DNA of 63,255 nt, taken from positions 1-63,255 of the forward strand of contig CAZIKE010000005.1 of the NCBI GenBank assembly GCA_964539775.1, in the 5' to 3' direction. How positions within the stretch are numbered: position 1 is the first letter of the stretch; each line of letters starts with the position of its first letter. A program made the translations under genes and the position numbers. Positions 22,477 to 22,630 of this stretch are shown here, in pieces. Source of the DNA: an uncultured Chitinophagales bacterium. GTDB lineage: Bacteria; Bacteroidota; Ignavibacteria; UBA10030; UBA6906. The notes beneath the pieces are model-generated. The model had not been told where the DNA came from and did no database searches. It saw only the letters and a list, made by a program, of their open reading frames with translations.

Positions 22477-22520
22477 GCTTCTCCTCAGTGCAATTCAGAG
22501 TGAGTGTTTCGATGTTAATG

Positions 22521-22591
22521 CTCTCGGGCGTGGATTCGAACCACGATTAACGGCTCCAAAGGCCGCTGTCCTGCCATTGGACGACCCGAGA
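22521..22591 (-). tRNA. tRNA-Gln(UUG), located inside the spc operon between rplR and rpsE
   Basis: Full cloverleaf: acceptor TCTCGGG/CCCGAGA, D stem GTCC/GGAC, anticodon arm GCGGC-CTTTGGA-GCCGT, T arm CGTGG-TTCGAAT-CCACG, discriminator G73. CCA not encoded. Confidence 0.95.
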
Positions 22592-22630
22592 AAAATCCAC
22601 GCACCACCCGGGCGACAGCTCCCGGCAATA

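Follow-up and report, generated by a model that had tools for sequence, protein, structure and literature searches.

A tRNA-Gln gene inside the spc operon

Ribosomal-protein operons are compact strings of protein genes, and in Ignavibacteria without the feature described here rplR directly adjoins rpsE (the spacer is 14–97 nt in loci without a tRNA). In the 63,255-nucleotide stretch of DNA analysed here, which comes from a hot-spring Ignavibacteria genome and is called the window, a gene for tRNA-Gln(UUG) lies between the two. Is this a working tRNA, is it transcribed with the ribosomal-protein genes on either side, and what would its maturation do to their mRNA? The surrounding genes on the minus strand encode S14, S8, L6, L18, S5, L30, L15, SecY, Map and IF-1 (NCBIfam equivalogs), so that the spc order rpsN-rpsH-rplF-rplR-rpsE-rpmD-rplO-secY is present and rpmD, rplO, secY, map and infA follow rpsE. 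The features of the slot, all on the minus strand, are these:

22631–22999, minus strand: rplR (ribosomal protein L18, 122 aa), upstream of the tRNA; TIGR00060, 123.9 bits, cut-off 87.85
22592–22630, minus strand: 39-nt 5′ leader, from the rplR stop to the tRNA; from sequence and folds
22520–22591, minus strand: tRNA-Gln(UUG), type A body; ARAGORN and Rfam RF00005
22477–22519, minus strand: 43-nt 3′ trailer, which is the rpsE 5′ UTR; from sequence
21955–22476, minus strand: rpsE (ribosomal protein S5, 173 aa, GTG start), downstream of the tRNA; TIGR01021, 216.7 bits, cut-off 164.05

A preliminary description of this DNA had reported an intact tRNA-Gln(UUG) within the spc operon, on the strand of the operon genes, and ARAGORN and Rfam agree. 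ARAGORN finds six tRNAs in the window, that at 22520–22591 (minus strand) among them, and its RF00005 score is 61.8 bits (E 3e-11, gathering score 29). Of the two distances given in the preliminary description, 39 nt from the rplR stop to the tRNA is correct, but the distance from the tRNA to the rpsE start is 43 nt and not 44.

The cloverleaf has U1-A72, G73, a 4-nt variable loop and the T-loop UUCGAAU, and the anticodon (22559–22557) lies in the loop CUUUGGA. Read from the sequence, the glutamine identity set of U1-A72, G73 and anticodon UUG is present, and U1 is found in 153 of 156 tRNAs from this slot. The genome encodes a bona fide GlnRS (771.9 bits). At its 3′ end the gene reads ...GAGAG-C followed by ATT; because the gene encodes no more of the CCA end than C74, post-transcriptional CCA addition is required. 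Across 82 distinct tRNAs from the rplR-rpsE slot of other genomes, 99.8% of stem positions are paired and 13 of the 21 stem pairs show compensatory double changes, which is the signature of a working tRNA. The structure of the tRNA is maintained by selection across the lineages that carry it.

Some members of the set depart from this form. In G103, a genome of the same family, the slot (L064/L206, C46:24847–24918) holds a type A glutamine body with the histidine anticodon GUG, which differs from the tRNA of a neighbour genome at position 34 and at one T-loop base. The same genome has a tRNA-Gln(CUG) elsewhere, and BLAST finds no other UUG copy in it; the GUG anticodon is either a base-call error in the metagenome-assembled genome (MAG) or a real anticodon change. 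In three further loci (L100, L175 and L200, from Ignavibacteria and Melioribacteraceae MAGs) the slot holds a strongly divergent third tRNA-Gln(UUG) body, with A1-U72 and a GGUGUAAUGGUAGCAC D arm.

The tRNA in the slot is the sole tRNA-Gln gene among the 37 tRNA genes of the genome, a metagenome assembly of 215 contigs. A count of further tRNA-Gln(UUG) copies, which the preliminary description had proposed as a check, therefore yields none among these 37. Several expected tRNAs are missing from the assembly, for example the tRNA-Glu(CUC)/tRNA-Gln(CUG) pair found in relatives, so the status of only copy is firm for the UUG isoacceptor and less so for glutamine tRNAs as a whole; gaps in the assembly could hide a tRNA-Gln(CUG) or a further copy. 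No other UUG copy was found in relatives that carry the spc-slot tRNA-Gln.

Leader and trailer

The preliminary description had also pointed to a CCGGG/CCCGG hairpin ahead of the tRNA. It exists, with 22625–22621 paired to 22612–22608, and in a fold of the leader alone it is the centre of an extended stem with imperfect pairing (about 22601–22631, −15.7 kcal/mol), which takes in the last base of the rplR stop codon. The sequence of this hairpin is conserved among close relatives only. GC-rich hairpins of differing sequence are found in most of the family f1 leaders inspected, and are absent where the leader is a few nucleotides long. Across 156 carrier loci the leader has a median of 22 nt and measures 3–8 nt in 56 of them.

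The trailer, with a median of 44 nt and a range of 22–330 nt over the same 156 loci, carries the translation signal of rpsE. In the window this is a Shine-Dalgarno sequence, GAGGAG, at 22486–22481, 4 nt before the GTG start, and the trailers inspected in 34 loci all end in a Shine-Dalgarno-like GGAG or GAGG.

Slot tRNAs are found in part of the class Ignavibacteria

Of 30 relatives that share the genus, family or order of the window's organism, 26 have the gene order L6-L18-tRNA-Gln(UUG)-S5-L30. An even sample at the level of the class gave a slot tRNA in 13 of 30 loci, consistently within families, and a sample of other classes of the phylum gave none in 18 loci. In GTDB species genomes, a scan for a tRNA T-arm (GGTTCRANTCC) at 90–150 nt ahead of the S5 motif KxVKGGRxF gave at least 120 loci, and all 120 of the matches listed are rplR-tRNA-Gln(UUG)-rpsE, with S5 proteins 68–92% identical to that of the window. 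Among these matches nearly all are titled Ignavibacteria, Ignavibacteriales, Melioribacteraceae or Ignavibacterium, and MAGs labelled Ignavibacterium album or Melioribacter roseus are included; a few are titled Chitinophagales or Synechococcus and are probably mislabelled MAGs. No other tRNA species upstream of rpsE, and no clearly different phylum, appears among the matches listed from the GTDB species genomes.

In all, the rplR-tRNA-Gln-rpsE arrangement is found in more than 150 genomes. The slot tRNA is present in about 40% of the class Ignavibacteria and, among the loci sampled and the matches listed, within that class only; rare cases elsewhere may exist. The preliminary description had raised the possibility of a clade marker across the wider FCB group (Fibrobacterota-Chlorobiota-Bacteroidota). 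What the slot marks is a group of lineages within Ignavibacteria, uniform by family; as a marker of the FCB group or of the whole phylum it fails, given 0 of 18 loci in other classes and Ignavibacteria-like S5 proteins in all 120 matches listed.

A reciprocal locus upstream of prs

Where the spc slot is empty, tRNA-Gln(UUG) is found at a second site. All 10 genomes of the class that lack the spc tRNA and were searched with prs, and additionally G026 (family f9), carry a tRNA-Gln(UUG) just upstream of prs-rplY(L25) and on the same strand. The prs slot is empty in 7 of 7 spc-state genomes tested and also in the window's own genome, where prs (C35:5717–6661) has rplY and pth downstream and no tRNA upstream. 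In that genome the region C35:6662–10777, between prs and bioY, holds a 1313-aa ORF (6836–10777) at the place where relatives have tRNA-Gln.

Of 13 outgroup genomes, which belong to other classes of the phylum, 8 have a prs-linked tRNA-Gln(UUG). Because of this outgroup distribution, a position upstream of prs-rplY is probably the ancestral one for tRNA-Gln(UUG) in the phylum, although the trees behind the comparison are weakly resolved. One prs locus holds more than a single gene: in L247 (G185, family f8), positions 2041–2245, upstream of prs, hold a tandem pair of tRNA-like genes of type B. The second is decayed and is called by ARAGORN as an odd ‘tRNA-Lys(ttt)’, with acceptor and T arms as in the first gene, and it looks like a degenerating duplicate.

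The two sites hold different tRNA bodies. The type A body of the spc slot (UGCCGGGUCGUCUAAUGGCAGGAC...) has a tRNA-Glu-like D arm and a 4-nt variable loop; it is also the body of the prs-linked tRNA in five outgroup families and of the tRNA-Gln(CUG) of relatives. The type B body of the prs-linked gene in Ignavibacteria (UGGGGCGUAGCCAAGCGGUAAGGC...) is E. coli-like with a 5-nt variable loop, and is also found in two outgroup families. When 151 genomes across the class were searched with both bodies, 58 had type A only (two of these calls being partial matches), 83 had type B only, none had both and 10 had no match. All loci checked for type A, among them spot checks in family f43 and in G202, had it in the spc slot, with one exception, and type B was upstream of prs-rplY in 11 of 11 loci checked. 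Families are uniform in their A or B state, with the single exception of G195. No other genome sampled from a type B family has a type A tRNA-Gln(UUG); in this one, from family f11, the gene lies at a third site (L244, C1:2186222–2186288) with no spc or prs genes within 2 kb.

The states do not correspond to one clade. A four-protein tree requires at least five state changes, of which its well-supported branches force only one, and a six-protein tree requires five to six; the backbone is weak in both. The window's own family, in the spc state, groups with family f8, in the prs state. Against a single clean clade of spc-state genomes inside the class, the AU test, a likelihood test, gives p = 0.020 on the six-protein tree. 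The history may have been ancestral coexistence of the two genes followed by reciprocal loss, or lateral spread of one state. A dependence of body type on the route to Gln-tRNA (GlnRS or transamidation) was also considered and rejected as a simple rule, since GlnRS occurs in 6 of 8 genomes in the spc state and in 5 of 10 in the prs state.

Transcription with the operon

To what transcript does the tRNA belong? On the operon strand of the spacer we found no E. coli-type promoter or terminator, and on the minus strand between 22400 and 24100 no Bacteroidetes-type TAnnTTTG motif, each being a consensus that may not be that of Ignavibacteria. A sigma-70-like site was likewise not found on the operon strand over 22400–24100, nor a hairpin with a T-run in the 43-nt trailer. 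Given leaders as short as 3–8 nt in over a third of the carrier loci and trailers that are typically 44 nt and end in a ribosome-binding site, a separate promoter or terminator would not fit. A further promoter could lie within rplR or rplF.

Direct RNA evidence comes from a close relative. No RNA run with the window organism's own flanks was found; the RNA contigs that align at about 80% identity are from G001 (locus L006), a relative in the same genus, as 24 of 24 variant positions agree with it, and G001 is abundant in sludge and wastewater metatranscriptomes. Assembled RNA contigs were placed on G001 at identities of at least 97%. In run X8, one contig of 4060 nt at a depth of 423 extends over L30-S5-tRNA-L18-L6. 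This depth cannot come from DNA, because the whole run holds 222 Mb and the genome is 4.2 Mb. In X5, X20 and X21 a single contig in each run crosses both tRNA junctions, and in X18 the two junctions are covered by two overlapping contigs between them. Altogether, RNA contigs cross the tRNA-rpsE junction of G001 in five runs from four studies. With the short flanks, the lack of promoter or terminator motifs and these contigs spanning L6 to L30 in G001, co-transcription of the tRNA-Gln with the spc operon is well supported.

Three low-depth runs, X16, X29 and X30, show a different pattern. The sole gap in their coverage from L6 to L30 lies just 3′ of the tRNA (L006:1419–1612), in the trailer and the 5′ end of rpsE, and coverage of the L18-tRNA junction is unbroken in all three. 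Breaks between contigs count for little as evidence, and the gap could come from a 3′ cut that is the faster of the two, from the order of processing or from chance. Between the parts upstream and downstream of the tRNA, contig depth, which is a poor measure of expression, shows no consistent step in the G001 runs.

Predicted processing of the operon transcript

We consider it highly probable that the gene is a functional, single-copy tRNA-Gln(UUG) inside the spc operon that is transcribed as part of the operon RNA. Since the tRNA is needed in mature form and the genome encodes a type A RNase P RNA (234.8 bits), we infer that RNase P and a 3′ nuclease cut this transcript. RNase P would cut at the 5′ end of the tRNA, predicted between 22592 and 22591. 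At the 3′ end, a nuclease would cut or trim after G73, and the CCA-adding enzyme would then complete the tRNA. As for RNase Z at the 3′ step, no homologue in the genome scores above the family cut-off (best match 38.8 bits).

Each matured tRNA would thereby split one operon transcript. The upstream piece would end after rplR, and in the window's family the leader hairpin may protect that new 3′ end; the downstream piece would open with the rpsE leader of 43 nt, in which the Shine-Dalgarno sequence lies. As each mature tRNA would come from an operon transcript, the output of tRNA-Gln would be tied to transcription of the ribosomal-protein operon. The preliminary description went further and proposed that the cut would uncouple rpsE-rpmD-rplO-secY-map-infA and the alpha genes from the genes before them, which the contig depths in G001 do not support, and that the placement might shield the tRNA from use as an integration site.

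Alternative explanations

We give practically no credence to the reading that the feature arose as an artefact, through mis-assembly or a chance resemblance to a tRNA, or survives as a dead pseudogene. We found nothing in its favour beyond the fact that the genome is assembled from a metagenome in 215 contigs, and against it stand the 61.8-bit Rfam score, the perfect cloverleaf with compensatory changes across 82 variants and the standing of the gene as the assembly's sole tRNA-Gln. Mis-assembly itself is ruled out by contigs of two independent hot-spring metagenome samples, which cover both the rpsE-tRNA and the tRNA-rplR junction with no differences, and by the more than 150 genomes that share the arrangement. 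The tRNA might instead be an independent unit, with a promoter in the 3′ end of rplR and a stop before rpsE, so that two operons flank it. The negative promoter scans weigh little against this, as the consensus sequences used may not be those of Ignavibacteria, and a terminator could produce the gap just 3′ of the tRNA in X16, X29 and X30. However, the trailer has no hairpin with a T-run, trailers are short throughout (median 44 nt, range 22–330 nt) and end in the rpsE Shine-Dalgarno sequence where inspected, and RNA contigs run over the tRNA-rpsE junction in five runs from four studies, one of them at a depth of 423. We therefore think an independent unit very improbable and retain the reading of a functional tRNA co-transcribed with the spc operon.

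A further alternative accepts co-transcription and differs on what selection has acted on. It holds that selection favoured the placement chiefly for RNA processing, as a bacterial form of tRNA punctuation that would give different stability or amount to the genes upstream (S10 and spc) and downstream (rpsE-rpmD-rplO-secY-map-infA-alpha), with the hairpin guarding the new 3′ end. In its favour, more than 150 genomes have the tRNA fixed in this slot, leaders of family f1 repeatedly contain GC-rich hairpins, though of varying sequence, and the dropout 3′ of the tRNA in X16, X29 and X30 would fit rapid 3′ cleavage after which the tRNA stays on the upstream RNA as its structured 3′ end. Yet 56 of 156 leaders, at 3–8 nt, could not form a hairpin, some 60% of the class manages well with no slot tRNA, and contig depths (a poor measure of expression) show no consistent polarity. 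On balance, selection mainly for processing seems to us unlikely. We are similarly doubtful of a more inclusive scheme that joins this idea to the history of the two loci: two interchangeable homes with different bodies, switched more than once through coexistence and reciprocal loss or through lateral replacement, where in the spc state the tRNA would also be a required processing site that splits the super-operon and tunes its halves differently. The functional tRNA carried on the operon transcript remains the preferred account.

Relation to known systems

In the E. coli tufB operon (thrU-tyrU-glyT-thrT-tufB), tRNAs are co-transcribed with an mRNA and released by RNase P and 3′ processing. 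The window contains a cluster of this general kind in addition to the spc-slot gene, with a second tRNA between protein genes, the tRNA-Trp between rpmG and secE:

46834–47796, minus strand: mixed cluster of tRNA-Thr(UGU), Tyr, Gly, Thr(GGU), rpmG, tRNA-Trp, secE, nusG, rplK, rplA and rplJ
47270–47419, minus strand: rpmG
47083–47157, minus strand: tRNA-Trp
46834–47019, minus strand: secE

Like the tufB type and rpmG-tRNA-Trp-secE-nusG, the spc-slot tRNA lies on the strand of translation-related protein genes and has no terminator of its own. Two marks of a tufB-type mixed operon are found here: a shared strand with no promoter or terminator in the window (the promoter consensus may not be the class's own), and RNA across the junctions in the relative G001 (locus L006). 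Unlike the tRNAs of both clusters, that of the spc slot sits deep in the S10-spc-alpha string between otherwise adjacent genes, its placement is limited to part of one class, and it is the genome's only tRNA-Gln(UUG).

Mitochondrial tRNA punctuation by RNase P and RNase Z is alike in that excising an embedded tRNA necessarily cuts a polycistronic RNA into mRNAs, and in that the tRNA of many carriers starts 3–8 nt after the rplR stop. Whereas in mitochondria tRNAs flank most coding regions, here one tRNA stands in the rpsJ-to-rplQ string, an operon of about 30 genes. The trailer moreover has an ordinary bacterial Shine-Dalgarno sequence, cleavage in the spc slot is predicted, and no bona fide RNase Z was found in the window's genome.

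A third comparison is the prs-linked tRNA-Gln(UUG), which has the same isoacceptor on the same strand, 11–205 nt upstream of the translation-linked prs-rplY(-pth) (18 loci). It differs in that it heads its operon, so its processing splits no coding regions, and in that within Ignavibacteria it has a type B body, where the spc slot has type A. The Euglena gracilis chloroplast ribosomal-protein operon includes trnI, and thus a tRNA co-transcribed within an S10/spc-related ribosomal-protein operon; it belongs to an organelle genome and involves a different tRNA at a different junction, and the likeness is a resemblance only.

Neither a tRNA placed between rplR and rpsE nor the alternative site at prs turned up in full-text literature searches. 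The rplR-rpsE placement thus appears to be undescribed, though tRNAs transcribed with protein genes are already known.

Significance

Current knowledge of tRNA function and of ribosomal-protein operon function is unchanged by this finding. What differs from the known cases is the deep position in a ribosomal-protein string, the restriction to part of a class, and the strict alternation with a second locus and a second body. The A or B state of a genome (58 and 83 genomes, none with both) is a simple genomic marker that would help to sort lineages of Ignavibacteria, and the class is a clear example of displacement, from locus to locus and from body type to body type, of a tRNA gene that is essential and single-copy. 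It also provides a conserved bacterial case in which maturation of an essential tRNA would have to cut a major ribosomal-protein mRNA. The cultured Ignavibacterium and Melioribacter make this a natural test case, in which tRNA excision may affect the stability and stoichiometry of the operon mRNAs.
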